DNA of 64,000 bases, taken from NCBI GenBank assembly GCA_050011195.1, contig JBEKJO010000001.1:6640-70639 (forward strand). The letters run 5' to 3'. Numbering within the stretch: position 1 is the first letter of the stretch; every line of letters starts with the position of its first letter. Below, piece after piece: positions 2,749-57,890 of this stretch. Source of the stretch: Verrucomicrobiota bacterium (GTDB taxonomy: Bacteria; Verrucomicrobiota; Verrucomicrobiia; Limisphaerales; UBA8199). Under the pieces are notes generated by a model, which made no database searches, had not been told where the DNA came from, and saw only the letters and a program-made list of their open reading frames with translations. The translations under genes and the position numbers were made by a program.

Positions 2749-3741
2749 ATGAAGATTAAAATTGCGCAATTCGGCCTGGGCCCCATCGGGCTGGAAACCT
2801 TGAAACTCGCCGCCGGGAAGCCCTGGGCGGAAATCGTTGGCGGCGTCGATATCGACCCGGCGAAGATTGGCCAGGATTTGGGCGCGCTCACGCGGATGAA
2901 AAGCCTGTGTGGCCGCCAGGTCTGGGGTTCGCTGGAGGAGTTAGTCCATTGCGCCCGGCCGGATGTCATCTTTCACACCGCCGTGTCCAGGTTCAAAGAC
3001 GCGTTCGCGCAGATTGAGCCTATGGCCCGCCAGGGCATCAGCGTGGTTTCTTCGTGCGAGGAACTGCTCTTTCCCCGGCTCCGCGAACCCAGGCTGGCCG
3101 CGAAACTCGATGAGGTTTGCCGGAAAAGCGGCGCGCGCGTCGTTGGCACCGGTGTGAATCCCGGGTTCGTTATGGACCTCCTGCCCGTTTGTCTGACGGG
3201 CGTCAGCCGGGAAGTCCGGGCCGTTCATGTCCAACGCGTGGTAAACGCCTCCACCCGCCGCGCCCCGCTGCAGAAGAAGATCGGCAGCGGTCTGCCGCCT
3301 GAAGAATTCCGACGCCTGTTTAAGCAAGGCAAAGCCGGCCACGCTGGCTTGAAAGAGTCCCTCGCGCTCATCGCTCACTGTCTGGGCTGGAAAACAAACA
3401 ACATCGTCGAGACCGGCGACGCAGTCGTGGCGGACCACCATATCAGCACGCAGTACCTGGAAGTGAAGAAAGGCCAGACCTGTGGACTCCACCAGCGCGC
3501 TGAGGCCACCGTGAACGGCAGGGTTTGTATCACGCTGGACCTGAAGATGTATCTCGACGCCAAGAATCCGCACGACGCAGTCCAGATCGAGGGCGAACCG
3601 CCGCTGGACGTCCTCATCAACGGCGGCGTGGCGGGCGACCAGGCCACTGTCGCCGCCCTGGTGAACACCGCGCCGCGGTTGCTCAAGGCCCCGGCAGGGT
3701 TGCTGCTGATGACCGATTTGCCGGTGCCGCGGATTGCCTGA
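2749..3741 (+). CDS. NAD(P)-binding oxidoreductase, DapB-like / amine dehydrogenase family (tentative)
   Basis: ATG at 2749 gives MKIKIAQFGLGPIGLETLKLAAGKPWAEIVGGVDIDPAKIG (Rossmann GxGxxG). The track ORF starts at 2593, but that extension looks non-coding. Confidence 0.55.
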   Translation: MKIKIAQFGLGPIGLETLKLAAGKPWAEIVGGVDIDPAKIGQDLGALTRMKSLCGRQVWGSLEELVHCARPDVIFHTAVSRFKDAFAQIEPMARQGISVVSSCEELLFPRLREPRLAAKLDEVCRKSGARVVGTGVNPGFVMDLLPVCLTGVSREVRAVHVQRVVNASTRRAPLQKKIGSGLPPEEFRRLFKQGKAGHAGLKESLALIAHCLGWKTNNIVETGDAVVADHHISTQYLEVKKGQTCGLHQRAEATVNGRVCITLDLKMYLDAKNPHDAVQIEGEPPLDVLINGGVAGDQATVAALVNTAPRLLKAPAGLLLMTDLPVPRIA

Positions 3742-3926
3742 CGGGCCGGTCCGGGGCAGACAGAACTCTGCTTTCAGCGCTCATCGTTTCCGCGCTGGAG
3801 GCGTCACCGCAATCAGGCTGCCGAGCCGCAAGGCTTTGTTCCCGGTGAATCCCCGAGGCGATTATCCGTATTCTCCTGAATTGCCTCGGCGCGCCGGGCG
3901 GGCGAAGTTTGTGGCAGGCACAGCTT

Positions 3927-4160
3927 ATGAAAATGTTGTTCTCCGCATCTGACCGCGAACAGGTTCAAGTGGTCAGGAAGAAACTGTTCGAGGCGGGCAT
4001 TCGTTGCGAAGTCCGCCAGAACCCCGTCGCCCAGGGCGTCTTTGGAATCCCTTCTTATCCGGAATTATGGGTCAACGAGGACGGCGATATTCTCAAGGCC
4101 TTGAAGTTGTTGGGAAATCGGCGCCTGAGCCAAATGACGGTGATTTTCTCCGGGAGTTAA
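3927..4160 (+). CDS. small protein, DUF2007-like (tentative)
   Basis: MKMLFSASDREQVQVVRKKLFEAGIRCEVRQNP...WVNEDGDILKALKLL. The pattern resembles the small 'putative signal transducing protein' fold; weak call. Confidence 0.4.
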   Translation: MKMLFSASDREQVQVVRKKLFEAGIRCEVRQNPVAQGVFGIPSYPELWVNEDGDILKALKLLGNRRLSQMTVIFSGS

Positions 4161-4201
4161 GGCCCTTTGCCGTTTGGATTCCTCGGGCGGGGCGTAACCG
4201 A

Positions 4202-4362
4202 GCACTGCCCCCGAGGAGTGCCAACACTCTGCGGTAACGGACCGCGAGCCGTCCCCGGCTCGCAGCGCGTTCGACCGTGCGGGGAACGGGCAGGAGGTTT
4301 GATCGCCGTTTCGCATATGTAGCCGCTGCGAGCCGGGGACGGCTCGCGGTCCGGGGGCAGTG
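4202..4362. repeat. palindromic element family A, copy 1
   Basis: Arms cggaccgcgagccgtccccggctcgcagcgcgtt (4238..) and gctgcgagccggggacggctcgcggtccg (..4352), with outer gcactgccccc/ggggcagtgc. Intergenic. Confidence 0.85.
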
Positions 4363-4477
4363 CCCGAACGCGCCCAGTCGGCCTGGGGTCGGGGGAATCC
4401 CCTCGGCCGGAAAGTTCCTCATTGTTAAGCTTGCCAAACGCCCTGGCATCCCTAGATTTAGCCGCTCATTCAAGTAT

Positions 4478-4822
4478 ATGACCTTAATTAGTCCGTACGC
4501 GTTCTTGGCGTTGGCGCCCCCGGCGCAGCCGGGGCAGCAAGCGCCGCCGGCGTGGGTGAACATGGTGCCGCTGGCCCTGCTCGTCGCGGTTTTTTACTTC
4601 GCCCTCATCCGTCCTCAGCAGAAGAAAACCAAGGAACACGCTGCTCTCCTGAAGGCGGTGCGCGCGGGCGATAAGATCGTGACCAGCAGCGGCATTGTCG
4701 CCGTCGTCGTGACCGTCAAAGAGAAAACCCTCACCGTCCGCTCCGCGGACGCCAAACTTGAAATCACCAAATCCGCCATTGCCGAAATCACCGAGCGCAG
4801 CGGCGAACCCAGCGAATCCTGA
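4478..4822 (+). CDS. yajC: preprotein translocase subunit YajC
   Basis: VPLALLVAVFYFALIRPQQKKTKEHAALLKAVRAGDKIVTSSGIVAVVVTV, immediately upstream of secDF. The track start 4277 lies in a palindromic repeat, so I trimmed to the ATG at 4478. Confidence 0.85.
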   Translation: MTLISPYAFLALAPPAQPGQQAPPAWVNMVPLALLVAVFYFALIRPQQKKTKEHAALLKAVRAGDKIVTSSGIVAVVVTVKEKTLTVRSADAKLEITKSAIAEITERSGEPSES

Positions 4823-4831
4823 TTTACTCTC

Positions 4832-7324
4832 ATGAACCGCAACAACTTCTGGAGATTCATTCTTGTTCTCCTTGTCATCCTCTGGTCCCTCTATGAGCTC
4901 TATCCGCCCGAGGGGCGCGACCTCCTGCTGTTCTTTCGTGAGAAGGCCGTAGGCCGGGACCCGGCCTTTACCGCCATTTTCCAGAAAGCCCAGGCCCTCC
5001 AAAAGGCCATGCCGGAGAAACCCTACGACAATCTGGTCGAGGCCATCGGCACCAATGACATCACGCGCTATTTCCCCTCCTTCGGAGCGAAGGAAGAGCT
5101 GCACCCGACGGCTTTCATCCTCAACCGCTTGCAGCGCGAAGCCGCCGGCCGCATCCGGCTGGGCCTCGACCTGCAAGGCGGCACTTCATTCCTCGTGGAA
5201 ATGGACACCAACCGGCTGGCCCAGGCCTCCGATGCCAGCACCGCCCTCTCTCATGCGGTCGAAGTCCTGCGCAAGCGCGTTGACAAATTCGGCGTCGCCG
5301 AGCCGCTCATCCAGCCGGAGGGCAACAATCGCATTCTCGTCCAACTGCCCGGTTTGTCTGCTGCCGTCCAGGAAAGCGCCAAAGTGGCCATTCAAAAGGC
5401 CGCCTTCCTCGAATTCCGCCTGGTCAGCCCGACCAGCGATCAGGACATCAAAGACGGCATCGTCCAACCGGGCTACGAAGTCCTCCGACGCAAGGAAACG
5501 ATGCGCAATGGCCGTGAACGTGTGGAAGAGGTTGAGGTCCGGAAGCGGGCTGAAATGACCGGCAGCGGCATCAAGAGCGCGATGGTCGTGCGCGGCAACC
5601 TGGGCGAGCCGGAAATCCACTTCACGCTGGATTCCAAGGGAGCCGAGCGCTTTGCCGACATCACCCGCGATAATGTCCACCAACGCCTGGCCATCGTTCT
5701 GGACGGCGAACTCTATTCTGCGCCGGTAATCCAAACGCCCATTGAAACGGGCAGTGGCCAGATCACCGGCCAGTTCGACAACCGGGAGGCCTTCGAGTTG
5801 GCCAACGTCCTGGAGAATCCGCTCCGCGCGCCGCTGCACATTGTCCAGTCGCGGGAAGTCAACCCGACCCTCGGCAAGGATTCCATCCGCAGCGGCATCA
5901 AAGCCGCCATCTACGGAACGCTGGCCGTCTCGGCCTTCATGCTCGTTTATTACCTCATCTCCGGCATGGTGGCCAACGTGGCCCTCATCGCCAACATCAT
6001 CATCCTGCTGGGCGTCATGTGCTCGGTCGGCACCACCCTGACCCTGCCCGGTATCGCCGGCGTCGTCCTGACCGTCGGCATGGCCGTGGACGCCAACGTC
6101 CTCATCTACGAACGTATTCGCGAGGAGACGGCCAAGGGTAAATCCCTGCGCGGCGCGATCGCCGCCGGTTACGCCCGCGCCTTCGGCACCATTTTCGACT
6201 CCCACGTCACGACGCTCATCTCCTCGGTCATTCTCATGTATATGGGCACCGGTTCCATCAAGGGCTTCGGTGTCGCGCTCACCATCGGTGTCCTCGCCAG
6301 CTTGTTCACCGCGCTGGTCGTCACGCGCATGATCTTCGACTGGCTGCTGGACCGCGGCTGGCTCAAGGCGCTGCCGATGTTTCACCTTATCCGGGCGACC
6401 AAGCTCGATTTCATGAGGCTCGCCAAACCGGCCTTCGTGATGTCGTGGATCCTCATCGCCATCGGCGTGGGCTGGGGTTGGCATCGCGGCAAAACCGCCT
6501 TCGGCGTGGATTTCCTCGGCGGTGATACCGCCATCTTTGCCTTCGCGCAGAAGTCCGATGAAGCCGTCGTGCGCTCCGCCCTCACCGAGGCCGGCATCAA
6601 AGACCCCCTGATTCAATATCAAAAGGACCTGAGCAGCGGACGTGAGACGCTCCGCGTGGACTCCACCACCGGGACGGGTGACAAAGTCAAGGCCGTGCTG
6701 TCCGAGGTTCCTGCCGCTAAATTCCGCCTGCTGAGCCAAGACCACATCGGCGCCACCGTCGGCCAGGAAATCCAGAAGTCCGCCGTGGTCGCGGGCTTGC
6801 TTTCCTTGTTCGGCATCTTGATCTACGTCGCTGTTCGCTACGAGTTCTCGTTTGCCGTGGGCGCGGTGTTGGCCGTAATCCATGACGTGCTCATGACTAT
6901 CGGCTGGTACTGCCTCTCGGGCCGCGAGTTCAACGCCACCACCGTGGCGGCTATCCTGACCATTATCGGCTTCTCCACCAACGACACCATCGTCATCTTT
7001 GACCGTATCCGCGAGAACCTGAAGCTGGGCCTCCGCGGCACCTTCCGCGAAGTGATGAACCAGGCGCTCAATCAAACCCTGAGCCGCACCATCATCACCT
7101 CCGGCACCGTCTTTCTGGCCACCACCTCGCTGTTCATCTTCGGCGGCGGCGCGATCAACGACTTCGCTTTTACCTTCCTTATCGGCATCATCACCGGCAC
7201 CTACTCCAGCATCTACATCGCCAGCGCCCTGGTCCTCTGGTGGCATAAAGGTCAGCGCCCGCACATTGGGGCCGGGCCGCAGGCCGCCGTGGACCTCAAG
7301 GTGCCGGTTCCCGCGCGAGGGTAG
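4832..7324 (+). CDS. secDF: protein translocase subunit SecDF (fused)
   Basis: 830 aa. SecD-like N-terminus with periplasmic domain, two 6-TM blocks, and a SecF-like GVDFLGGD segment. Confidence 0.92.
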   Translation: MNRNNFWRFILVLLVILWSLYELYPPEGRDLLLFFREKAVGRDPAFTAIFQKAQALQKAMPEKPYDNLVEAIGTNDITRYFPSFGAKEELHPTAFILNRLQREAAGRIRLGLDLQGGTSFLVEMDTNRLAQASDASTALSHAVEVLRKRVDKFGVAEPLIQPEGNNRILVQLPGLSAAVQESAKVAIQKAAFLEFRLVSPTSDQDIKDGIVQPGYEVLRRKETMRNGRERVEEVEVRKRAEMTGSGIKSAMVVRGNLGEPEIHFTLDSKGAERFADITRDNVHQRLAIVLDGELYSAPVIQTPIETGSGQITGQFDNREAFELANVLENPLRAPLHIVQSREVNPTLGKDSIRSGIKAAIYGTLAVSAFMLVYYLISGMVANVALIANIIILLGVMCSVGTTLTLPGIAGVVLTVGMAVDANVLIYERIREETAKGKSLRGAIAAGYARAFGTIFDSHVTTLISSVILMYMGTGSIKGFGVALTIGVLASLFTALVVTRMIFDWLLDRGWLKALPMFHLIRATKLDFMRLAKPAFVMSWILIAIGVGWGWHRGKTAFGVDFLGGDTAIFAFAQKSDEAVVRSALTEAGIKDPLIQYQKDLSSGRETLRVDSTTGTGDKVKAVLSEVPAAKFRLLSQDHIGATVGQEIQKSAVVAGLLSLFGILIYVAVRYEFSFAVGAVLAVIHDVLMTIGWYCLSGREFNATTVAAILTIIGFSTNDTIVIFDRIRENLKLGLRGTFREVMNQALNQTLSRTIITSGTVFLATTSLFIFGGGAINDFAFTFLIGIITGTYSSIYIASALVLWWHKGQRPHIGAGPQAAVDLKVPVPARG

Positions 7325-7340
7325 CTGCTTTCCCGGTGAC

Positions 7341-8321
7341 ATGTTCGCCGTGGTTGAAATCACCGGCTGGCACTGGGTTGGTTTCATCGCCTGCGTCCTG
7401 ATCTTTCTGGCGCTCGACCTCGGCCTCTTCCATCGCCACGCCCACACCGTCACGTTCAAGGAAGCGCTCGTCTGGAGCGTCGTCTGGTTCTCCCTGGCGA
7501 TGCTCTTCGCCTCCGCCCTCAAACCCTTGCGCGGAAAGCAGGAGACCCTCCAATTCGTCACCGGCTATCTGATCGAGCTGTCACTCTCGATGGACAACCT
7601 CTTTGTCATCGCCCTCGTCTTCGCCTACTTCCGCATCCCCCGGGAACACCAGCATCGCGTCCTCTACTGGGGCATTCTGGGTGCGCTGATCATGCGTGGC
7701 CTGATGATCGGCCTGAGCCTCGCCCTCATCGCCCTGCTGGATTGGGTCCTCTACCTCTTCGGCGCCTTCCTCCTCTACAGCGGCTTCAGGATGCTCTTCG
7801 TCCACACCGAAGTGCATCCGGAGAACAATCGCGTGGTCCAGTGGGCGCGAAAACTCTATCCCGTCACGCCGGATCTCCACGGGCAGAGATTCGTGACTCG
7901 CTGGGAAGGCCGGAAAGCGCTCACTCCCCTGGCGCTGGTTCTCCTGATGGTCGAAACCACCGACCTGCTCTTCGCCGTGGATTCCATCCCGGCGGTCTTC
8001 GCGGTCACGCGCAAGCCCTTCATCGTGTTCACCTCGAACGTCTTTGCCATTCTCGGCCTGCGTTCCCTTTACTTCCTCCTGGCAGGCGCCATCGGCTATT
8101 TCCGCTCCTTGAAATACGCCCTGCCCATCGTTTTGGTGTTTATGGGCGTCGAAATGTTGCTTGACCCGCACGACCGTCCGCCGCGCGGGATTCAGGTCGA
8201 GATTCCCACCTCTGTTTCGTTGCTCGTCGTCGCGGGCATCCTGCTGACTTCCATCGTCCTGTCCCTCACCGCCGCCTGGCGCGAAAAAGGGCACACTGCC
8301 AAAACTCCACCACCCAGATGA
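7341..8321 (+). CDS. TerC-family integral membrane protein
   Basis: Multi-TM protein with the LELSLSMDNLFVIALVF motif. ATG at 7341 (MFAVVEITGW). Confidence 0.85.
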   Translation: MFAVVEITGWHWVGFIACVLIFLALDLGLFHRHAHTVTFKEALVWSVVWFSLAMLFASALKPLRGKQETLQFVTGYLIELSLSMDNLFVIALVFAYFRIPREHQHRVLYWGILGALIMRGLMIGLSLALIALLDWVLYLFGAFLLYSGFRMLFVHTEVHPENNRVVQWARKLYPVTPDLHGQRFVTRWEGRKALTPLALVLLMVETTDLLFAVDSIPAVFAVTRKPFIVFTSNVFAILGLRSLYFLLAGAIGYFRSLKYALPIVLVFMGVEMLLDPHDRPPRGIQVEIPTSVSLLVVAGILLTSIVLSLTAAWREKGHTAKTPPPR

Positions 8322-8415
8322 TTTCCTTGCGCCGCCCCGGATTCGGGTTCCATGAACCTTCCACCCCGCTACTGAGGGTTCCCCCTGTCCCCTTCGGAAG
8401 GGGTGTCCGTTTAGC

Positions 8416-8526
8416 GCGGCGCGCGGACATTCTTGTCCGCAGCCTGCCCCGAAGAGGAATAAGGACCGGACTTGTAACCCGTGTTGGCGAAACATGTGGC
8501 TGCGGACAAGAATGTCCGCGCGCCGC
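8416..8526. repeat. palindromic element family B, copy 1
   Basis: Arms gcggcgcgcggacattcttgtccgcagcc and ggctgcggacaagaatgtccgcgcgccgc, just upstream of the recJ start. Confidence 0.85.
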
Positions 8527-8532
8527 CAGGAA

Positions 8533-10377
8533 ATGAAATTCCGCTGGTTACTCGCGCCGCCCCAGCCCCTCCTCGCCGCGCAGTTGGCGACTTCCCTGCG
8601 CATCCCGCCGCTGCTCGCCCAATGCCTGCTGAACCGCGGCCTGAGCGAGCCGGCCTGCATCACCGGCTTCCTCCAGCCCCAACTCAAGCAATTGGCCGAT
8701 CCGTTCCTCCTGCCGAACATGGCTGCCGCCGTCGAGCGCCTCCTCCAGGCCCGCCAACGCAACGAATCCCTCGTCATCTTCGGCGATTACGACGTGGACG
8801 GTGTCACCTCGACCGCCCTGCTGCTGGAAGTGCTCCGCCCCCTCGGCTGGAACGTCCATTACTACCTGCCCAATCGCATGGATGAAGGCTACGGTCTCAG
8901 TCAGGACGGCGTGGAGAATTGCCTGGCGAGATTCCCCGCCACCCTCCTCCTCGCCGTGGACTGTGGCTCCACCGCCGTCGCCTCCATCGCCTCGCTGCGA
9001 CAGCGCGGCATTGATGTGATCGTCCTGGACCATCATCAGGTTTCCTCCCCCGCCCCTGCCGCCACCGCCCTGGTCAACCCGCAACTCAGATTCGGACCGC
9101 GAGCCGTCCCGGCTCGCAGCGCGCAGGAACAAGCCGAGGTGCTCGGAGAACCCGAAGGTCCGGAAGCCGTGGGGGCCGCTGCGAGCCGGGACGGCTCGCG
9201 GTCCGGTGAGCTGAATGCAGCCCTGCCTCCGCCCTTCACCGAACTCTGTTCCGCCGGCCTCGCCTTCAAACTCGCCCACGCCCTCCTCAAACGCGGACGC
9301 GAAACCAGCCTGCCCGGCGCAGCCGAGTTTGACCTGCGCCCCCTGCTTGACCTCGTCGCCCTCGCCACCATCGCCGACATCGTGCCTCTCACGGGCGAAA
9401 ACCGTATCCTGGTCACCGCTGGCCTGGAGCGCCTCAACGCCACCCAACGCCCCGGCCTGGTCGCCTTGAAAAGAGTCGCTCAGTCCCCAGCCCTCCTCGG
9501 CGCCTACGAAGTCGGCTTCCAGCTCGCGCCCCGTCTCAACGCCGCGGGCCGCCTCGAAACCGCCGAAGACGCCCTGCGCCTCCTTCTGGCCGCCGACTTG
9601 GCGGAGGCGCTGCCCATCGCCCAACAGCTCGACGCCCACAACCGCGAGCGCCAGAAGATCGAACGCGCCATTGCCGACGAAGTCATCGCCGCCCTGCGCG
9701 CCCGGTTCAACCCGGAAACCGACTTCGTCATTGTCGAAGGCCAATTGCCCTGGCACATCGGCGTTGTGGGCATTGTGGCGGCGCGTGTCCTCCAGCAGTT
9801 CTACCGCCCGACCATCATCCTCGGCGGCGATGCCGGGCAATTCCGCGGGTCCGGCCGCAGCATTGCCGGGTTCGACCTCGCCGCCGCGCTGCGCCAGTGC
9901 GGCGACCTTTTGCTCCGCCACGGCGGCCACGCGATGGCCGCGGGCGTCAGCCTGCACGCCGCCAAGCTGGACCCCTTCCGCGCCCGCCTCAACGAACTCG
10001 CCCGCCGCGCCCTCCAACCCGAACAACTGCAAGCCCCCCTGCGCCTCGACGCCGAGGTCCCCATCGACGCCATCACCCTCGAATCCCTCGCCACCCTTGG
10101 CCAGTTGCGACCGACAGGGCAGGGGAACCCTCCCGTCCAATTCTTCACCCGCAACCTCGCCCAGCAACGCCCGCCCCAACGCATGGGCGCCGACAAACAG
10201 CACGTCAAAATGTGGGTCACCGACGGCGCGGCCACCCACGAAGCCGTCTGGTGGAACGTCGGCAATGAACCCCTGCCCGACCCCCGCTTCGACCTCGCCT
10301 TCGCCCCCCAGGTCAACGACTACAACGGTCGCCGCACCGTCCAGTTGAAAGTCCTCGACTGGCGGCCAGCCCAATAA
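8533..10377 (+). CDS. recJ: single-stranded-DNA-specific exonuclease RecJ, carrying a ~45-aa repeat-derived insertion
   Basis: DHH motifs (IFGDYDVDGVTS, LLLAVDCGS, VIVLDHHQ) and DHHA1 (GGHAMAAG). The track start 8494 lies in a repeat, so the ATG at 8533 (MKFRWLL) is preferred. Confidence 0.88.
   Translation: MKFRWLLAPPQPLLAAQLATSLRIPPLLAQCLLNRGLSEPACITGFLQPQLKQLADPFLLPNMAAAVERLLQARQRNESLVIFGDYDVDGVTSTALLLEVLRPLGWNVHYYLPNRMDEGYGLSQDGVENCLARFPATLLLAVDCGSTAVASIASLRQRGIDVIVLDHHQVSSPAPAATALVNPQLRFGPRAVPARSAQEQAEVLGEPEGPEAVGAAASRDGSRSGELNAALPPPFTELCSAGLAFKLAHALLKRGRETSLPGAAEFDLRPLLDLVALATIADIVPLTGENRILVTAGLERLNATQRPGLVALKRVAQSPALLGAYEVGFQLAPRLNAAGRLETAEDALRLLLAADLAEALPIAQQLDAHNRERQKIERAIADEVIAALRARFNPETDFVIVEGQLPWHIGVVGIVAARVLQQFYRPTIILGGDAGQFRGSGRSIAGFDLAAALRQCGDLLLRHGGHAMAAGVSLHAAKLDPFRARLNELARRALQPEQLQAPLRLDAEVPIDAITLESLATLGQLRPTGQGNPPVQFFTRNLAQQRPPQRMGADKQHVKMWVTDGAATHEAVWWNVGNEPLPDPRFDLAFAPQVNDYNGRRTVQLKVLDWRPAQ
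9093..9205. repeat. palindromic element family A, copy 2 (inside recJ CDS, in frame)
   Basis: Arms cggaccgcgagccgtcccggctcgcagcgcg and gccgctgcgagccgggacggctcgcggtccg. Confidence 0.85.
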
Positions 10378-10390
10378 CCCTCGCCACGTT

Positions 10391-10490
10391 GGAGCGCCGG
10401 TTTCCAAACCGGCTTAGTCCAAGCTCACAGCAGAAAGACGCACAAAAGATGAGAGCGGACACCATAATCCGGTTTGGAAACCGGCGCTCC
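10391..10490. repeat. palindromic element family C
   Basis: Arms ggagcgccggtttccaaaccgg and ccggtttggaaaccggcgctcc, 14 nt downstream of the recJ stop. Confidence 0.85.
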
Positions 10491-10560
10491 GACCCGCAGA
10501 CGGGCTTGCCCGCGCGCTACTGGCGATTCAACGCGGCGACCAGGCCGTTGAACTGGGGCG

Positions 10561-10702
10561 TTCGGCGGACACGATAGGCGCGTTGGTTTGGGGTAAGGTT
10601 GGGTCGAGGGCCATAAGTAGTTAATGCTTGGTTAATGTTTCCCGTTCACCCCGGTTCTACGCCCCCCCGCCCGCCAGCACAAGCCGCGAACCGGCCCACC
10701 TC
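10561..10702. repeat. imperfect direct repeat, copy 1 (flanks R-M module)
   Basis: Aligns at roughly 75-80% by eye with 12445..12579. Shared blocks are ttcggcggac, gttggtttggggtaa, ggccataag and gttctacgccc(c/g)cccgcccgccagcacaagccg. Confidence 0.8.
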
Positions 10703-10761: not shown

Positions 10762-11481
10762 TTATTTCAGTACTTTTGCGAGAATATCCTTAACAAACTG
10801 AGGAATTTCCAAACCCGATTTTGCGGCGTCCGCTTTCAACCGGTCATATTGCGCAACTTCCTCGCCCTGCCACACAAGATCAATTCTCCGGATTTGGCGC
10901 ATCGCCACATGATTATACTTTTCGGGGTAAGCCCAATAGCACGACAGGCAAATGTTTTTGTCTCTAATGCTTTTCCAATTCTCGCAGTGTTCGCACGACC
11001 AGGATTTCGCGCGATTCGCCGAACCGCAGAGCAGCATAAAGTCGTCTATCTTGAGTTCGTCGCTTTCTCCGGCCACCTCGTAGGGGACACGATGGTCAAT
11101 CTGCAAGTTTGGCTCATCCATTTTTTCCAGGTAGATAAAGCACTGGCATCCATATTCCTCGATGAGTTGTTCTTTGATTTTCTTGGAGAGGCCTGTGCGG
11201 CCGCTAAACCGCCGGAATTGTTTCTTGGTCGGGTCGGCAAACCGGTAGGCGGCGATCTTGCGACCATTGGCGGCGGCGACGCGAAAAGTTTCGAGCTGAA
11301 TGCCGAGCTCCCTGACATCCCGTGCCGCCCGTGGTGGATGATCGTAGCCGTATTTGGTCTTCAACTCTTCCGTTGTGACGTGGCCGTGCTTGAGAATGTG
11401 ATCAATCACCGTCTTCGGGCGCTTGCCGGTGACGGAGGCGCACAGTTCAAGAAACTCTTTTGGGTGTTTTGGCTTTGCCAT
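10762..11481 (-). CDS. HNH (beta-beta-alpha-Me) nuclease, probable type II restriction endonuclease
   Basis: CQC...IDHRVPYEVAGE...LLCGSANRAKSWSCEHCENW...CLSC gives an HNH core with flanking Cys pairs. It overlaps the methylase gene by 35 nt and its GC is visibly lower than the flanks. Confidence 0.65.
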   Translation of the reverse strand: MAKPKHPKEFLELCASVTGKRPKTVIDHILKHGHVTTEELKTKYGYDHPPRAARDVRELGIQLETFRVAAANGRKIAAYRFADPTKKQFRRFSGRTGLSKKIKEQLIEEYGCQCFIYLEKMDEPNLQIDHRVPYEVAGESDELKIDDFMLLCGSANRAKSWSCEHCENWKSIRDKNICLSCYWAYPEKYNHVAMRQIRRIDLVWQGEEVAQYDRLKADAAKSGLEIPQFVKDILAKVLK

Positions 11482-12397
11482 AAGGAACGGGTTTTTCCAT
11501 CAATTGCATCTGCTCGTCCCGCCGGTGGCGGTGCACCGTTGGCAGAACTTCCAACTCCTCCGCCAGCGCCGGCGAAAGATATAAAGATTCCACTGTCATT
11601 TCGTCCCGACCCAGCAAGGTGGCCTGCGAAGAACGCCCAGCCTCGATTTCCACCAGCGTCAAATGCAGCTTCGCCGGCAACGGTCTGCCGTAGCTGCGAT
11701 TTCCCAGACGCCCGTCGTAACTCACAAGGTATCGGACATTTTTCAAATTCAGCACCGCGAGTTGCGCCACGAAGTCGTCGAACGCGATCCCGGAGAAATA
11801 CCGCGAGTCGCGTTCCCCGCAAACCCCTTGATACGGCGGGTCCATATAGACCACATCATCCTCGCGCACATTCGCCAGCACATTTTCGTAGCTCAACGAG
11901 GTGATGATGGTTTTCCCGCGCAACAATGCTGAAATGGCGTTGAGGTTTGCCTGCATTGTTTCCGGCTGCGTTCCCAGACGGCGCTTATCGGGACTTTGAT
12001 TGAACAACCCTTCCCCGTTGTAGCGCACCGCGCCCTTCACGCAGCGGGCCAGCAGATACAAAAGCAACTGCGCATCCTGCGTGCGATTGAACGACTCGCG
12101 CACCTGATAATAATGCTCCAGCGCATCCTCGTGGTCGGCGCGCCAGAGTTCTTTGTAAAACTTCCCAAGCTCTTTCGGGCTGTTGACGATCAAAGATAAC
12201 AACTTTGCCAGCGGCGCGTTAACATCGTTCAGCCAGAATTCCTTCGCCCGCCCGCGCGCCGCCGCGGCGATGGACAGGGCGGCGGAACCGCAGAACGGCT
12301 CGACCAGCCGAATGGTGCTCGCGGGAAGATATTGCAGAATCAACGAAGCCAGCGCCCGCTTGCTGCCTTGATATTGGAATGGCTGGGGAACGGTCAT
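11447..12397 (-). CDS. Dam-family (D12 class) N6-adenine DNA methyltransferase
   Basis: FQYQGSKRAL N-terminal motif, VEPFCGSAAL (motif I) and VVYMDPPYQGV (DPPY, motif IV). Confidence 0.85.
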   Translation of the reverse strand: MTVPQPFQYQGSKRALASLILQYLPASTIRLVEPFCGSAALSIAAAARGRAKEFWLNDVNAPLAKLLSLIVNSPKELGKFYKELWRADHEDALEHYYQVRESFNRTQDAQLLLYLLARCVKGAVRYNGEGLFNQSPDKRRLGTQPETMQANLNAISALLRGKTIITSLSYENVLANVREDDVVYMDPPYQGVCGERDSRYFSGIAFDDFVAQLAVLNLKNVRYLVSYDGRLGNRSYGRPLPAKLHLTLVEIEAGRSSQATLLGRDEMTVESLYLSPALAEELEVLPTVHRHRRDEQMQLMEKPVPYGKAKTPKRVS

Positions 12398-12444
12398 GGG
12401 CGGAGGTCAACGCTAGCGTCGGGAAATTCCTTGGGGGCGCGCAT

Positions 12445-12579
12445 TTCGGCGGACGACAAGGGGGTGTTGGTTTGGGGTAACGCTGGATTGAAGGCCATAA
12501 GCAATGTTTGGTTTGTTTTCTATCGCCCCAGTTCTACGCCCGCCCGCCCGCCAGCACAAGCCGAGAAACGGACCGCCTC
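12445..12579. repeat. imperfect direct repeat, copy 2 (flanks R-M module)
   Basis: See copy 1. It lies between attC-like site 12586..12676 and the methylase start. Confidence 0.8.
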
Positions 12580-12585
12580 AGCCTG

Positions 12586-12676
12586 TCTTAACGCCCAGGC
12601 ACGCGGGGTGATGACGTCGTCCGCGATCGCGGAACTGGAGACGCCATCCCACGTTACCTGCAACGATTTGTTAGGC
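12586..12676 (-). repeat. attC-like site (91 nt), weaker
   Basis: Minus strand reads GCCTAAC...GTTAAGA with the apex palindrome ccgcgatcgcgg. L-box pairing is imperfect, with an asymmetric internal loop. Confidence 0.35.
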
Positions 12677-13054
12677 AGCATGTGCATCCTTTCTCAGCAT
12701 CTGAAACCATGCAAACCCAAATGCTACGAACGTCACCAAGTCAATGGCTACAAAAGCCGGGACATCGTGGAGACCAGCAAACGCAAAGGTAATAAATGGA
12801 GCTAAATGAGCAACGACGGCAGCAATGATCCGAATCCAGCGCTTCGCTGAACACGCCGCGACGAGTCCGCACGCAAAGTATGCTGAATATGGTAACACGA
12901 GCCCCTCTGCCGGTGGACTATCAAAATGACCAGCACCGTCACCCCATCCTGCAAATGGTCCCTTGGCAGTCATCAGAAACATGAGACCATAGGTCATCAA
13001 TAAGCCGACAAGAAGGAATATCCCTGCATATTTGGCATGAGGCGAACTCGTCAT
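12671..13054 (-). CDS. small multi-TM protein (putative cassette ORF 2)
   Basis: 127 aa with 3-4 hydrophobic helices and lower GC. It starts 10 nt after GTTAGGC, and its stop lies inside GCC-TAA-C. Confidence 0.5.
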   Translation of the reverse strand: MTSSPHAKYAGIFLLVGLLMTYGLMFLMTAKGPFAGWGDGAGHFDSPPAEGLVLPYSAYFACGLVAACSAKRWIRIIAAVVAHLAPFITFAFAGLHDVPAFVAIDLVTFVAFGFAWFQMLRKDAHAA

Positions 13055-13064
13055 AGGTGATGCT

Positions 13065-13157
13065 GCCTAACGCTCGCACTCAGGCACGGCGCGCCTGAGA
13101 CGTTCGGCAAGAAATAAGAGCGTGACCGCGCCGTTGCCTGGAGTGCGCTCGTTAGGC
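13065..13157 (-). repeat. attC-like site (93 nt)
   Basis: The + strand reads gcctaacgctcgcactcaggc...gcctgGagtgcgctcgttaggc. There is an 8-bp R-box pairing, a 2x2 internal loop, 7 bp, a single bulged G, then further pairing ggcacggcgcg/cgcgccgttgcc. Confidence 0.5.
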
Positions 13158-13493
13158 ATCAGGACTACTCTTCTTGCTGCGGCAGAACGCTAACATGGCC
13201 CAGCCCACAACGGTAATTATGGAAATCACAATGGTCGGGTAAGAAACCAAAAGCAGCGCCAAACCTGCGGACGGCCTACCGTCTCCACACTGGATGGCTA
13301 GAGTAAACCCCACTCTGGAAACGAATGCGAGAATAGCTGCTGCCGACAGAATCCACATACCTGCCAACCTGTACCGCCGAGCAGCCAAAATCACACACAC
13401 CGCGATAATCAATTGGGGCACCCCCCAAGACAGCGGCTTTTCCAACAAATAGCATAGCCCCATCAGCCACGTTTCTGCAGAGTGCGCGTCCAT
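13152..13493 (-). CDS. small multi-TM protein (putative cassette ORF 1)
   Basis: 113 aa with 3-4 hydrophobic helices and lower GC. It starts 10 nt after GTTAGGC, and its stop lies inside GCC-TAA-C. Confidence 0.5.
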   Translation of the reverse strand: MDAHSAETWLMGLCYLLEKPLSWGVPQLIIAVCVILAARRYRLAGMWILSAAAILAFVSRVGFTLAIQCGDGRPSAGLALLLVSYPTIVISIITVVGWAMLAFCRSKKSSPDA

Positions 13494-13680
13494 AATACCG
13501 AATGCCTAACAGATAATGGGCATCATATTGGACGTCTTGAAATACGTCATGGGGCGATGGTATTTTTCGGTTTATCGCGCGTCAACAGGAAATTGCGGCG
13601 AGGCGAGAGCGTGATGTTGAAACGGGAAAGGCGTCGCGGGGTGCCGGGCTCGCCTGCGGATGGGGCGGACGAATTGCGCG

Positions 13681-13770
13681 CCAGCGTTTGGAATGCGGGC
13701 AGCTTGCTGCCGCTGTCGAACGCCCGGCCCCGACCCAAGCGGCAGCAAGCTGCACGCAAAACGCTTGCGA
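13681..13770. repeat. palindromic element family E
   Basis: gcagcttgctgccgct (13699..13714) and agcggcagcaagctgc (13738..13753), with outer agcgttt/aaacgct pairing. Confidence 0.7.
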
Positions 13771-13946
13771 CTGCGCCATTGGCAGCCACATCGCCCCTCC
13801 CTCCATCGCTTGGGGTAAGAGCTTGTTCCAGGGATTCGTGTATCGCCGGAATCGTCCGCCTTCAAGGCGCAGTTGCCATTAGCAGATCAAAACTTATCCG
13901 CCTCGAATGCCCGCCAACAAACCCGCTTTTAGTAGAAATACGAATC

Positions 13947-13963
13947 TGTCCAGTTTTTGGACA
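13947..13963. promoter_or_regulatory. 17-bp palindrome TGTCCA-N5-TGGACA, copy 1
   Basis: tgtccagtttttggaca. Confidence 0.3.
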
Positions 13964-14075
13964 CGACCACCCCAGTAAGGAGCAAGCAGGCATGGATACC
14001 CATAGGGGGGGCGGTATGAGTACAGTGAGGGCCCCAGGTGCATCACTTGTTGGACCTGCTCCCAGACCTTGTTTT

Positions 14076-14092
14076 TGTCCAATTTCTGGACA
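14076..14092. promoter_or_regulatory. 17-bp palindrome TGTCCA-N5-TGGACA, copy 2
   Basis: tgtccaatttctggaca, 129 bp from copy 1. Confidence 0.3.
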
Positions 14093-14368
14093 CTACTGTC
14101 CCATTTTGTCAATATTGAGAAGCCAGAGGCCCAGGGATGCTGGCTCATGGGCATAACAGCCTGCCGGGCATATCAATTAGATTTCCTTCAACATCTGATG
14201 CCCACTGCAGCTGGCGACCGCGCTTTTGGCTGGCCAACCACAAAGAGCACAAAGACCGCAAAGAAGGGAACGTAGGGGGCCTCACCCGCCAGATGATCGC
14301 GCCAATTTGCCTATCCGTCCGTCTCTCTTTGGGTTCTCTGCGTTCTTTGTGGTTAAAGTGCTCCGTTT

Positions 14369-14422
14369 AGGTTGAATTGCCTTTGCCTTTGCGTGAGATT
14401 CAACTGCGGAATCCAGGTTGAA
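14369..14422 (+). promoter_or_regulatory. ispD leader with mutually exclusive hairpins; contains a conserved 24-nt motif
   Basis: gttgaat (14371..14377) and gttgaa (14417..14422) can both pair with attcaac (14398..14404). The motif ttcaactgcggaatccaggttgaa recurs at 41674. Confidence 0.3.
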
Positions 14423-14457
14423 ACGGCGTCGGCGAACCGGCAATCTTCTGCCGATTT

Positions 14458-15150
14458 ATGATCTCCGCCATCATTGTCGCCGCCGGCCAGGGCACCCGCA
14501 TGGGACCGCAAGTGGCTAAGCTCTTCCTCGAACTCAATGGCTGCCCCATCGTGGCGCACACGTGGCGGCGGTTCGACCAGGCCGAGTGCATTGACGAAAT
14601 CCGCATGGTCGTACGCGATGGCACGCAAGCCGCCTTTGCCGCGTTGGCGGAAGCATACAAGTTCAAGAAGCGCTTTCAGTTGGTCGCTGGCGGCAAGGAG
14701 CGGCAGGACTCGGTCTGGAACGGACTGGAATCGCTGTCGCCAGGCACCGAGCTGGTAGCCATTCAGGATGCGGCACGGCCCTGCACCAGCCCGGCGCTGA
14801 TCGCGGCAACCGTGGCCGCCGCGCGGGAAATCGGCGCCGCCGTCGCCGCGCAGCCCGTCACCGATACCATCAAGGAATCGAGCGACGGCAAACTGATCGA
14901 GCGCACCCTGGACCGCTCGCGGCTCTGGGCGGTCCAAACCCCGCAGACGTTCCGCGTGGAAATCATCCGGCGAGCTTTGTCGGTCGTTCGGCAAAAGGGC
15001 CTGCTCGTGACCGACGACACCGCGGCGTGCGAACTCATCGGCCAGCCGGTCCGGCTGGTGGTGAGCGCCACGCTCAACCCGAAGGTCACCCGCCCGGAGG
15101 ACCTGCCCTGCGTCGAGGCCCTCCTCCGCGGCCTGGCGTCTCACACCTGA
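14458..15150 (+). CDS. ispD: 2-C-methyl-D-erythritol 4-phosphate cytidylyltransferase
   Basis: MISAIIVAAGQGTRMG N-terminal signature, followed by ...AIQDAARPC...WAVQTPQTF. Confidence 0.9.
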   Translation: MISAIIVAAGQGTRMGPQVAKLFLELNGCPIVAHTWRRFDQAECIDEIRMVVRDGTQAAFAALAEAYKFKKRFQLVAGGKERQDSVWNGLESLSPGTELVAIQDAARPCTSPALIAATVAAAREIGAAVAAQPVTDTIKESSDGKLIERTLDRSRLWAVQTPQTFRVEIIRRALSVVRQKGLLVTDDTAACELIGQPVRLVVSATLNPKVTRPEDLPCVEALLRGLASHT

Positions 15151-53683: not shown

Positions 53684-53989
53684 AAGTTGTCTGGACATCT
53701 GAACTATCGCGCTGCACTGGATGCTGGGTGTCCATCCCTGATTGCGGTCGGGAGCCTTTGGCTCAGCGCGAGCGAACGCCTGCCTTGGCTTCGAGATCGT
53801 CATGGGCAACCGCCGATTCAACGCGCTTAAGGGCTTCGACCTCGGTCAAGGGCTTGGGTTGTTGCTCGGCGAACTTCTGCAGTTCGTCGAGGCAGGCCCC
53901 ATCCCCTACCCTGCGCGTCGGTTGACGGTGGCGCACAGAATCCGGCTTTTCGCGAGTCAGATTTGCGGATGGCGAGTGCGGGGGCCGTA

Positions 53990-54014
53990 AGCCGGTTTGG
54001 AAACCGGCGCTCCG
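53990..54014. repeat. family C solo arm
   Basis: gccggtttggaaaccggcgctccgg. No partner arm seen nearby. Confidence 0.7.
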
Positions 54015-54134
54015 GCCCGCGGGTGTGAAATATACGGGTTGGGTCGTCGGCGGGCAGGCGGAGGGGGCGGAGGAACGCGGTGGTGGCTCCAGGGCGGCAC
54101 CGGAGCAATCCCGGAGCCCCTCTGTAGCCATACC

Positions 54135-56279: not shown

Positions 56280-57890
56280 ATGAAAAGACTCTACTCGCTC
56301 AGTTCTGCGCTCGCGCTCGCCCTGTTCACCCTCCTCGCCGTCACGGGTTGCAAGAAGGAGGAAGCGCCGCCGGGCAAACCCGAGAAGGCCGCGCCGGCTG
56401 TGGCTGTGTCCGCCGAACGAACCAGCTTCGCGCAGGTCACCTCGAAGCTCGACCCGGGCGGCAGCCTTTACGTGTACCTCAGCACCGAGCAATGCCTGGA
56501 AGGCCTGTCCGGCAAGGTTTCCGCCTGGCGGGGAGTGCTGGCCGCCATTCCCGACCTCAAGTCTGAGAACCGCGAGAACCTCGGCAAGGCGTTCGACATC
56601 GTGACGAACCTGATCCAAAAGAGCGGCATCGAAGACATCAGCGGGTTCGGCATGAGCGCGATTGCGCGGGAGACCAACTTCTACCACTCGAAAATGCTTC
56701 TGCATCATTACCCGGGCAAGGGATCGGGCTTTCTGTGGACCATGTTCGGCCAAAAGCCCCATGCGCTCGAGGGCCTGAGCCTGCTGCCCGCCAGCACGGC
56801 CCTGGCGACATTCACCGATCTCGATGTCCCGCTGCTCTGGTCGGTCATCGAGAAGCAGGTGGCCGAGTCCGGCTTCCCGCAGGCCGAAGAATTGCTCAAC
56901 AAGCTGCCCGATAACTTCGAGAAGGCCACCGGCCTCAAGTGGGATCAGGTCCTCGCCTCGCTCGGGGGCGAGTTCGGCTTTGCGGTCACCCTCGATGACA
57001 CGAAGATGATCCCCATTCCCCTGCCGTCGGGCGGTGACCCGCTCCAAATCCCCGAGCCGGCGTTGCTGCTGGTGGCGAAAGTCAAAGACGACACCATTTT
57101 CAACCGCATTGAGCAAGCGCTCCAACAGAACGGCGGGCAACAGATCGTCAAGGCCGACAAACCGGGGCTGAAAATGCGCACCTGGCCTTTGACGCTGCCG
57201 TTGCCCATTCAACTGCGCCCCACCGTCGCTGCCGCCGACGGATACCTGTTCATCGCCACCACTGACGCCGTCATCCAGGAAGTGCTCGCGGTCAAAGCCG
57301 GCCAGCACGCCGGGCTGAAATCAACGCAGGAATTCCAGCGCTTGTCCAAAGATGTGCCGGTCCAAGGCAACAGTTTCAGTTTCGTGAGCCAGCGCTTCGG
57401 CCAGACCGTGATGAGAATCCAGCAGCAGGCCGCGCAGATGACGGCGAACGCGCAGGGGTCCCAAACGGCATGGCTGCAATCTTTCCTCGGCTCGGGCAAA
57501 GGGACCGTCTCCTACACGGTGGCGGCGAACACCGACGAAGGGTGGCTGGCCGTCGCCAACGGCAATCAACATCCGGCGAAGCTGCTGGCCGTTTCCGCGG
57601 TCGTTCCGATAGGCATGCTGTCGGCGATTGCGATTCCCAACTTCGTCAAGGCGCGTCAGACCTCGCAAAAGAACGCCTGCATCTTCAACCTTCGCCAGAT
57701 TGACAGTGCCAAACAGCAGTGGGCCTTGGACAACAAGAAGACGGACGCCGACACACCCACGCCCGAGGACCTGAAACCCTATCTCAACAAGAAACAATTC
57801 CCCGTCTGCCCTGCCGGCGGCACCTACAGCATCAACCCCGTCTCCAGCCGGCCCGAATGCAGCCACGCGGGGCACAGATTGTCGGATTAG
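56280..57890 (+). CDS. lipoprotein with C-terminal pilin-like (pseudopilin) module
   Basis: Lipobox MKRLYSLSSALALALFTLLAVTGC. The C-terminus is LSAIAIPNFVKARQTSQKNACIFNLRQIDSAKQQWALDNKK...CPAGGTYSINP...C. Confidence 0.65.
   Translation: MKRLYSLSSALALALFTLLAVTGCKKEEAPPGKPEKAAPAVAVSAERTSFAQVTSKLDPGGSLYVYLSTEQCLEGLSGKVSAWRGVLAAIPDLKSENRENLGKAFDIVTNLIQKSGIEDISGFGMSAIARETNFYHSKMLLHHYPGKGSGFLWTMFGQKPHALEGLSLLPASTALATFTDLDVPLLWSVIEKQVAESGFPQAEELLNKLPDNFEKATGLKWDQVLASLGGEFGFAVTLDDTKMIPIPLPSGGDPLQIPEPALLLVAKVKDDTIFNRIEQALQQNGGQQIVKADKPGLKMRTWPLTLPLPIQLRPTVAAADGYLFIATTDAVIQEVLAVKAGQHAGLKSTQEFQRLSKDVPVQGNSFSFVSQRFGQTVMRIQQQAAQMTANAQGSQTAWLQSFLGSGKGTVSYTVAANTDEGWLAVANGNQHPAKLLAVSAVVPIGMLSAIAIPNFVKARQTSQKNACIFNLRQIDSAKQQWALDNKKTDADTPTPEDLKPYLNKKQFPVCPAGGTYSINPVSSRPECSHAGHRLSD

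Follow-up and report, generated by a model that had tools for sequence, protein, structure and literature searches.

A probable two-cassette integron array without an integrase between recJ and ispD of a peat-bog Limisphaerales bacterium

Introduction

Groups of clustered attC sites without integron-integrases (CALINs) are defined by two or more attC sites spaced by less than 4 kb and by the lack of a nearby intI gene, and 95% of those in one study are without a recognizable intI pseudogene (PMC4889954). Verrucomicrobia are among the phyla encoding integrons, as listed by Cury et al. (PMC4889954). In addition, insertion of cassettes by the integrase at genomic sites of the sequence 5'-GWT-3', called attG, has been shown experimentally (bioRxiv 10.1101/2022.09.11.507474). 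Here, we analyze a 64-kb stretch of DNA from a Limisphaerales bacterium (contig JBEKJO010000001.1; the whole stretch is referred to below as the window) and interpret its positions 12586..13510, which lie between recJ and ispD, as a two-cassette integron array without an integrase, that is, a CALIN in which each gene has its own attC site of a family found in peat-bog Verrucomicrobiota. We put the probability of this reading at about 0.9.

A CALIN-like array had been proposed at this place in a first-pass annotation made from the sequence alone, and the proposal is now supported by a covariance model of attC, by homologues of the two genes that are themselves cassettes, by the occurrence of the same attC family beside integrases, and by the lack of IntI in the window. 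The two sites, designated attC1 and attC2, are spaced 388 nt apart, both on the minus strand, with no intI, and the locus is therefore a CALIN by the published definition.

Results

Two genes with the same boundary geometry

The array carries two open reading frames (ORFs), ORF1 and ORF2, each followed by an attC site (Table 1). Both end in GCC-TAA-C, and each starts exactly 10 nt past a GTTAGGC heptamer. The first-pass annotation had given the ORF positions, these ends and offsets, and cassette sizes of 439 and 479 bp, all of which were re-found as stated. Heptamers of the GCCTAAC/GTTAGGC type number seven in the window (4.15 expected in 64 kb over both strands), and four of the seven fall within 12670..13510, where their order and orientation are R' - ORF - R''...R' - ORF - R''.

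A tandem duplication as the source of the common boundaries was ruled out, since a BLASTP comparison (E = 3.4) showed that ORF1 is no paralogue of ORF2. No family was assigned to either protein in a Pfam search, consistent with their earlier description as small multi-transmembrane (multi-TM) proteins of no recognizable family, and none was assigned to the ORFs in 13511..14457. The guanine-plus-cytosine (GC) fraction is 0.52-0.55 at the cassettes and 0.63-0.72 in recJ and ispD. The lower GC reported for the two genes is thus real in comparison with these flanks, but it is not a trait of the cassettes, since the GC-poor tract is the entire 10.4-14.4 kb interval, cassettes included.

Covariance-model test of attC identity

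We built a covariance model of attC from 15 sites of class 1 integrons only, with the R-box and L-box pairs specified. The sites (qacG2, dfrA1, dfrA12, dfrA14, dfrA15, arr-2, cmlA, aadA1, aadA2, aadA7, blaVIM-1, aac(6')-Ib4, aac(6')-Il, gcuF, and qacL) came from plasmid class 1 arrays found by a 5'-conserved-segment search, of which twelve annotated arrays were taken. When both strands of the window (128 kb) were searched with filters off, the best match was attC1 at 13065..13157(-) (24.7 bits, E = 3.9e-4) and the second was attC2 at 12586..12676(-) (21.8 bits, E = 2.4e-3). Both matches were full length and on the ORF-sense strand, and their boundaries were exactly those drawn in the first-pass annotation. 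A search with an attC model had been suggested there as a check, and with our home-built model the two predicted sites came out as the top two matches in the window. A third match, at 57135..57206 (16.1 bits), lies inside a 598-aa ORF and was treated as chance.

For attC sites beside intI in Verrucomicrobial integrons (contigs L253 and L222), the same model gave 16.6-24.2 bits, and for clinical sites it gave 43-53 bits. Except in one array, on contig L097, no match of 18 bits or more was found in 1.2 Mb comprising 80 related Limisphaerales and the loci of ORF1 and ORF2 homologues. Rfam held no family matching the two sites. A scan that combined regular expressions with minimum free energies found attC1 only and missed many true class 1 sites; it was discarded, and the covariance model was used instead.

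The features by which attC sites are recognized, namely, R''/R' cores, a palindrome of 57-141 nt, extrahelical bases, and a match to the covariance model, are present here. The extrahelical bases are those of attC1, and the L box of attC2 is damaged. By analogy with known integrons, we infer that IntI would recombine the folded bottom strand at these sites.

It could be argued that the hairpins are generic intergenic palindromes, either terminators or elements like repetitive extragenic palindromes (REPs), that resemble attC by chance, and that the ORFs are ordinary chromosomal genes. The same interval does contain other long imperfect palindromes (10388..10493, 13659..13792, and 14236..14354), and a hairpin right after a stop codon could terminate transcription. 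However, these other palindromes have no match to the attC model, whereas the two candidates are its top two matches. There is no T-run at either site, the core heptamers cluster nonrandomly, homologous genes bear the same type of site in arrays beside integrases, and the element is absent from 80 relatives. The recurrence of such hairpins throughout the genome, which the first-pass annotation had named as an outcome that would count against an array, was seen neither in the window nor in 1.2 Mb of related Limisphaerales. We consider a chance resemblance very improbable.

attC1 looks functional, and attC2 is decayed

Folded as single-stranded DNA, attC1 reaches -35.6 kcal/mol, compared with -19.3 ± 2.5 kcal/mol for shuffled sequences (z = -6.4; 0 of 200 shuffles were as good). 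Its stem has 8 bp followed by a 2x2 internal loop and 7 bp; one bulge, at 13140, then precedes 5 bp, and another, at 13134, precedes a further 7 bp. The cores, GCCTAAC...GTTAGGC, are complementary at 7 of 7 positions. The 93-nt hairpin had been described correctly as far as the bulge at 13140, and the second bulge, at 13134, had been overlooked. The assignment of the bulge to the R''/L'' arm of the bottom strand holds for the DNA fold, in which G13140 and T13134, on the window plus strand, are the extrahelical bases. When attC1 is aligned to the class 1 attC model, its bulged C occupies the column of the L'' bulge, and the L box displays compensatory changes relative to the attC family. attC1 appears structurally intact and looks functional, because both cores are present, the spacer is unpaired, the L box contains extrahelical bases, and the score is as good as those of sites in complete integrons.

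Folded alone, attC2 is weak (z = -1.9), with the stem forming in part. Its cores, GCCTAAC...GTTAAGA, are complementary at 5 of 7 positions, and the last base is A, not Y. The site is 82-92% identical to array attC sites in L221, L195, L207, L216, L129, and L121. Relative to intact counterparts, three C residues of the L'' arm have become T (GCTGCAGGCAACGCGGG to GTTGCAGGTAACGTGGG), 7 nt covering part of L' and of the spacer are deleted (GTGCCTGAGCTCTGGACG to GTGCCTGGGCG), and R' reads GTTAAGA instead of GTTAGGC. These changes explain the poor L-box pairing, which had been remarked upon earlier, and the weak fold. The site can now be described more closely: judged from its relatives, attC2 is a decayed or decaying member of a recognizable attC subfamily.

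A similar site was seen at 10380..10510 of L094/L096, where a putative attC follows an ORF2 homologue of 70% identity. R'', L'' (GCCGGAGCC), and R' are retained there, and the L' partner has been lost. The attC model gives no match at the L094 site, which we count as decayed. It appears to be a second case, from another Verrucomicrobial chromosome, in which a stranded ORF2 cassette has a site in decay.

An attC family of peat Verrucomicrobiota that adjoins integrases

Sites in L097, L112, and L114 define a family consensus of GCCTAAC-N4-CGCCGGAGCCAAC...GGTGGCTCAGC-T(n)-CGTTAGGC. Across 14 family sites, the model's 16 pairs were paired in 94% of cells, compared with 11-45% when the partners were slid. 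Three L-box pairs are maintained through double changes, two of which are contributed by the window sites. The family pattern occurs in at least 120 public metagenome contigs (L116-L235), nearly all from peat, bog, or fen samples. Among the matches listed, up to 12 exact ones lie at cassette spacing on one 5-kb contig, and L216 has a single family site inside a 389-kb contig. This distribution points to large sedentary integrons, as well as many stray sites, in peat Verrucomicrobiota.

L222 encodes a protein of 339 aa with 52% identity to IntI1 over 321 residues; the alignment contains one gap, of a single residue, outside the IntI-specific domain. After this intI gene come a GTTAGGC core, a cassette, and a family attC. 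Close relatives of the protein (60-87% identity) are annotated as integron integrases, and those named for an organism are all from Verrucomicrobiota. Similarly, the 59-kb chromosomal contig L253 carries an IntI relative followed by two attC matches. Complete integrons with this attC family, represented by L222 and L253, thus exist in the same phylum and habitat.

An IntI-like gene of another clade, 33-39% identical to IntI1, lies at 521..1482 of L185 (OBLT010082802.1). Its reading frame is broken in two near residue 152, which may reflect a pseudogene or an assembly error. A GTTAGGC core about 35 nt away from the gene is followed by a cassette with a family-type attC.

The same genes occur as cassettes elsewhere

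ORF1 has one database homologue, P0002 (50% identity), on contig L097, where it is flanked by attC matches of 17.8 and 23.5 bits, with a third of 28.1 bits further along the contig. A second ORF1 homologue (47%) lies in L156 between an attI-like end and a family attC, as the first cassette after attI. The ORF2 family comprises about 25 homologues of 58-91% identity. One of these, P0005 (83% amino acid identity to ORF2), is a single cassette in a run of co-oriented small genes on L112/L113, an array with 8 attC model matches. DNA homology of the ORF2 unit to L112/L114 extends over 13072..12642, starting exactly at CGTTAGGC and ending about 35 nt into attC2. Upstream of this boundary, the sequence differs and is unrelated in each contig compared with the window. 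Such a break at CGTTAGGC is what marks a cassette with its boundary at the G|TT crossover. With one promoterless ORF and one attC each, G|TT bounds, and occurrence in other contexts, both units have the makeup of gene cassettes.

The ratio of nonsynonymous to synonymous substitution rates (dN/dS) was 0.06-0.32 for ORF2 against five homologues and 0.19 for ORF1 against its L097 homologue, the latter with dS saturated. ORF1 and ORF2 are thus real genes under constraint, and the intact frames and low dN/dS across the ORF2 family suggest that the proteins are functional.

ORF2 homologues were also seen outside cassettes, in L091-L093 (genes at about 3633..10372) and L110/L111, as the last gene of a conserved trio that also encodes a giant RCC1-repeat protein (1000-1750 aa) and a 356-aa protein. 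In L091-L093, the trio is part of an element that also encodes a tyrosine integrase of 490 aa and a relaxase of the TrwC type. The ORF2-type membrane protein thus travels on a conjugative element as well as on an integron cassette.

Contig L097 also bears on a different mechanism, in which a single-strand Y1 transposase (of the IS200/IS605 or REP-associated type), rather than an integron integrase, moves the hairpin-flanked units. This short contig, which carries the ORF1 homologue, has a Y1_Tnp gene at its end, and Y1 enzymes do act on hairpin DNA. Yet the sites have the integron-specific RYYYAAC/GTTRRRY cores, L boxes with an extrahelical base, and a match to the class 1 attC model; the family adjoins IntI genes; and there is no Y1 transposase in the window. 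Of all the explanations weighed here, this one seems to us the least probable.

The array is confined to one population

RecJ places the window in Limisphaerales (Verrucomicrobiota), with a palsa metagenome-assembled genome as the closest species representative (79% identity). In several peat metagenomes, ORF1 and ORF2 were each found as exact copies on about 23 contigs, and these contigs are about 99.95% identical over the interval. The array is invariant across about 20 population contigs; differences in gene calls among them stem from the gene callers.

In 39 of 80 related species, ispD follows recJ, with a gap of about 60 bp to 7.8 kb. ORF1, ORF2, and the neighboring restriction-modification (R-M) genes are encoded in none of these 39 relatives, the array is absent from all 80 species, and the same covariance model found no attC match in the recJ-ispD intervals of the relatives. 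Given this variation in gap size and the absence of the genes, recJ-ispD is a variable insertion hotspot, and the array is specific to this species-level population. A conserved integron locus was ruled out as an explanation of the interval; the relatives' intervals vary greatly but are without attC sites. The first-pass annotation had held that ORFs and hairpins conserved in synteny across relatives would speak against cassettes, and no such conservation was found. It had also proposed comparing this interval among relatives for the presence or replacement of cassettes: the interval does vary and lacks these genes elsewhere, but neither cassette replacement nor an attC site was seen in the relatives.

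No integrase, and an attI-like left junction

No IntI-like sequence was found in the 64 kb, 13511..14457 included (best tblastn results: IntI1, E = 0.19; L222 IntI, E = 1.1), which bears out the earlier remark that the window has no integrase. The integrase-free span extends 12.5 kb to one side of the array and 50 kb to the other. As neither IntI1 nor the Verrucomicrobial IntI gave any tblastn signal in 13511..14457, a pseudogene of intI was ruled out there. Of the components of a complete integron (intI, an adjacent attI, and Pc), intI is absent, and only an attI-like end of 8-10 nt was found.

No attC match lies upstream of the left GTTAGGC core. The 8 nt before the left crossover, ATTATCTG (13511..13518), and the TTAGGC that follows fit the sequence AWTAYCTG|TTAGGC, which is common to the attI ends of L222 and L253, both beside intI, and of L156, which shows homology to the L222 attI in its upstream region. 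The chance of an attI-proximal match of this kind at an arbitrary GWT site is about 2e-4, in a comparison that was made post hoc. Around G|TT at 13510, there is also an attI-like simple site, ATGCC-N12-GGCAT.

Because the 8 nt at the left junction fit the attI-proximal consensus, we favor, with moderate confidence, an origin of the array as the remnant of a complete integron that lost intI. Under such an origin, an integron integrase would have recombined the folded bottom strand of attC with attI, thereby inserting the cassettes, and the ORF1 cassette would have arrived last because it adjoins attI. The integrase gene and most of attI would later have been lost or left behind, with the array stranded beside ispD. 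Movement at present would be expected only with IntI supplied from elsewhere in the genome, and it would then be poor, given the partial loss of L' from attC2 and a left site that is a core only; with attC2 damaged, ORF2 would be excised less readily. ORF1 and ORF2 would probably be transcribed from a local promoter upstream of ORF1. Promoter-like hexamers on the minus strand, at 13585..13557 and 13550..13522, are consensus matches only, and expression from the hexamers at 13585..13522 is speculative.

Alternatively, an integrase acting in trans may have placed a circle of two cassettes at an ordinary genomic site (attG), in which case there was never an integron here. Two-cassette CALINs are the commonest size class, and IntI inserts at GWT sites in genomes (bioRxiv 10.1101/2022.09.11.507474). 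The right junction, G|TTAAGAC, is unlike the family R' GTTAGGC, as expected if TTAAGAC is target DNA. There is no intI remnant, and the upstream DNA is not significantly attI-like past 10 nt. Against such an insertion, the 8 nt on the left match the AWTAYCTG of three related integrons, with the low chance at a random GWT site that was estimated above, and in L156 an ORF1-type cassette is likewise the first after attI. We regard attG insertion as possible and rather unlikely. If it took place, an uninterrupted empty site, ...CCCATTATCTG|TTAAGACAGGC... or ...CCCATTATCTG|TTAAGACAGGCTGAGG..., would be expected in a close relative.

The retention of the attI-like simple site and of an intact attC1 also allows for a satellite platform that is still used in trans, with an IntI elsewhere in the genome inserting or exchanging cassettes. 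We think this distinctly unlikely. Were it true, recJ-ispD would be a landing pad shared by integrase-dependent cassettes and an independently mobile R-M unit.

The adjacent R-M module and other neighbors

A type II R-M module occupies 10762..12397 of the minus strand, co-oriented with the array and starting right after R' of attC2. Its strand and its place directly downstream of the second site had been noted in the first-pass annotation; we can add that it has no sign of being a cassette. A direct repeat of 142 nt, 78% identical between copies, brackets the R-M pair (12445..12579 and 10561..10702), and each copy holds a short ATG-initiated frame (MAFNPALPQTN... and MALDPTLPQTN...). The module resembles an independent insertion with duplication more than it does a cassette, and the repeat may be a long target duplication that accompanied this insertion.

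R-M and other defense genes are known integron cargo, and one could take the array to be longer, with the R-M module (10762..12585) as a third, large cassette whose attC has decayed and with the repeats as homologous 5' ends of cassettes. The orientation of the module and its position directly after attC2 R' fit this idea, as does the repeat, whose upstream copy begins 6 nt after R' and whose weak similarity may extend into R' itself (GGGCGTTAAGAC versus GGGACGAAGCC). However, there is no attC match or hairpin downstream of the endonuclease gene, a unit of ~1.9-2.0 kb with two genes would be at the extreme of cassette sizes, and the R-M proteins and flanking repeat were not found among the array contigs of the family, at least 120 in number. 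A third cassette is, in our view, highly unlikely.

In one population contig, L249 (Ga0116114_1005256), the equivalent of 11281..11855 has 76 mismatches, mostly at third codon positions. The mismatch block is restricted to the methyltransferase gene's 3' part and the endonuclease gene's 5' part, with flanks ~100% identical, and it looks like a recombination tract that brought in a divergent R-M allele.

Just past the recJ stop codon lies a 106-nt imperfect palindrome (10388..10493), each arm of which contains the palindrome CCGGTTTCCAAACCGG. Because a partial copy lies 43 kb away (53974..54020; 85% over 47 nt), this element is REP-like. Two positions within the palindrome (10447 and 10468) distinguish the window from every population contig. 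Upstream of ispD are imperfect palindromes at 13659..13792 (134 nt) and 14236..14354 (119 nt), and the motif TGTCCA-N5-TGGACA occurs twice, at 13947..13963 and 14076..14092, 129 nt apart; these two look like operator sites. Neither the palindromes nor the TGTCCA-N5-TGGACA motifs upstream of ispD matched the attC model or the relatives.

Table 1. Features of the recJ-ispD interval, in window coordinates
Feature	Coordinates	Strand	Remarks
Lone R' core GTTAGGC	13504..13510	-	Left edge of cassette 1; putative crossover between G13510 and T13509
ORF1, 113 aa, small multi-TM protein, gene of cassette 1	13152..13493	-	Stop codon inside attC1 R''
Cassette 1, 439 bp	13071..13509	-	ORF1 + attC1
attC1, 93 nt	13065..13157	-	R'' GCCTAAC 13151..13157; R' GTTAGGC 13065..13071
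ORF2, 127 aa, small multi-TM protein, gene of cassette 2	12671..13054	-	Stop codon inside attC2 R''
Cassette 2, 479 bp	12592..13070	-	ORF2 + attC2
attC2, 91 nt	12586..12676	-	R'' GCCTAAC; R' GTTAAGA
Stretch between array and ispD, noncoding or without assignment	13511..14457	.	947 bases; expected place for intI
D12-class N6-adenine methyltransferase	11447..12397	-	Pfam PF02086, E = 2.5e-33
HNH-like endonuclease	10762..11481	-	Weak Pfam HNH match, E = 0.03
recJ	8494..10377	+	Flank of cassette interval
ispD	14458..15150	+	Flank of cassette interval

Discussion

Several points weigh against an integrase-free array that descends from a complete integron. No intI pseudogene was found in the window, so that the loss of an integrase is our inference, and the search for an integrase covered the 64-kb window only. 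The attI interpretation of the left junction draws on 8-10 nt, and the other 90 nt upstream are not significantly like known attI regions (z <= 1.6 without the last 10 nt). There was no presence/absence polymorphism of the array in the approximately 20 population contigs, and mobility was thus not seen here. Our attC model is not the published one of IntegronFinder and was built on 15 sites, which makes its E-values rough. Finally, the full attC2 hairpin is not formed in minimum-energy folds, and attC2 by itself is weak evidence.

CALINs are already well described, and this array leaves our knowledge of integrons unchanged. It is a clean case of a stranded cassette pair in a phylum whose integrons are little studied. 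With one site intact and the other in measurable decay, it illustrates how cassettes may turn into ordinary chromosomal genes. It also indicates that attC sites can be recognized correctly by eye from raw sequence, and it brings to light two membrane proteins, the ORF2 family in particular, as conserved accessory genes.

Compared with the cassettes of class 1 integrons (aadA1, aac(6')-Ib, blaVIM-1, and cmlA), the window has the same R''/R' cores, spacer, position of the L-box bulge, and G|TT boundary. The class 1 cassette aac(6')-Ib4 shares the R'' GCCTAAC and also ends in GAT-GCC-TAA-C. In contrast, the window has no resistance genes, no 5'- or 3'-conserved segments (5'-CS/3'-CS), and no Pc promoter context. 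The R-L spacer of attC1 is 1 nt longer, and the window sites score 22-25 bits, compared with 43-53 bits for clinical sites, which we attribute to phylogenetic distance.

The sedentary chromosomal integrons, such as the Vibrio cholerae superintegron with its V. cholerae repeats (VCR), resemble what is seen in related bacteria here, where a sequence-related attC family occurs in long arrays beside IntI. They differ from the window, which has two cassettes without an integrase and would be an offshoot or a remnant of such a system. The route of single attC sites lacking integron-integrases (SALINs) and attG insertion, described by Loot et al. (bioRxiv 10.1101/2022.09.11.507474), likewise yields an isolated cassette or a very short cassette set in the chromosome, far from an integrase, and the right junction could be a cassette G joined to a target TT. 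Unlike the products of that route, the window has a left junction that is attI-like and not an arbitrary GWT, and it has two cassettes, not one.

The closest likeness is to the CALINs of PMC4889954, which, as here, are small arrays whose cassettes are of unassigned function, with no intI nearby and, as a rule, no recognizable intI pseudogene. The host in our case is one of the peat-bog Limisphaerales and not a proteobacterium, and one of the two sites is visibly decayed; nothing that defines a CALIN differs.

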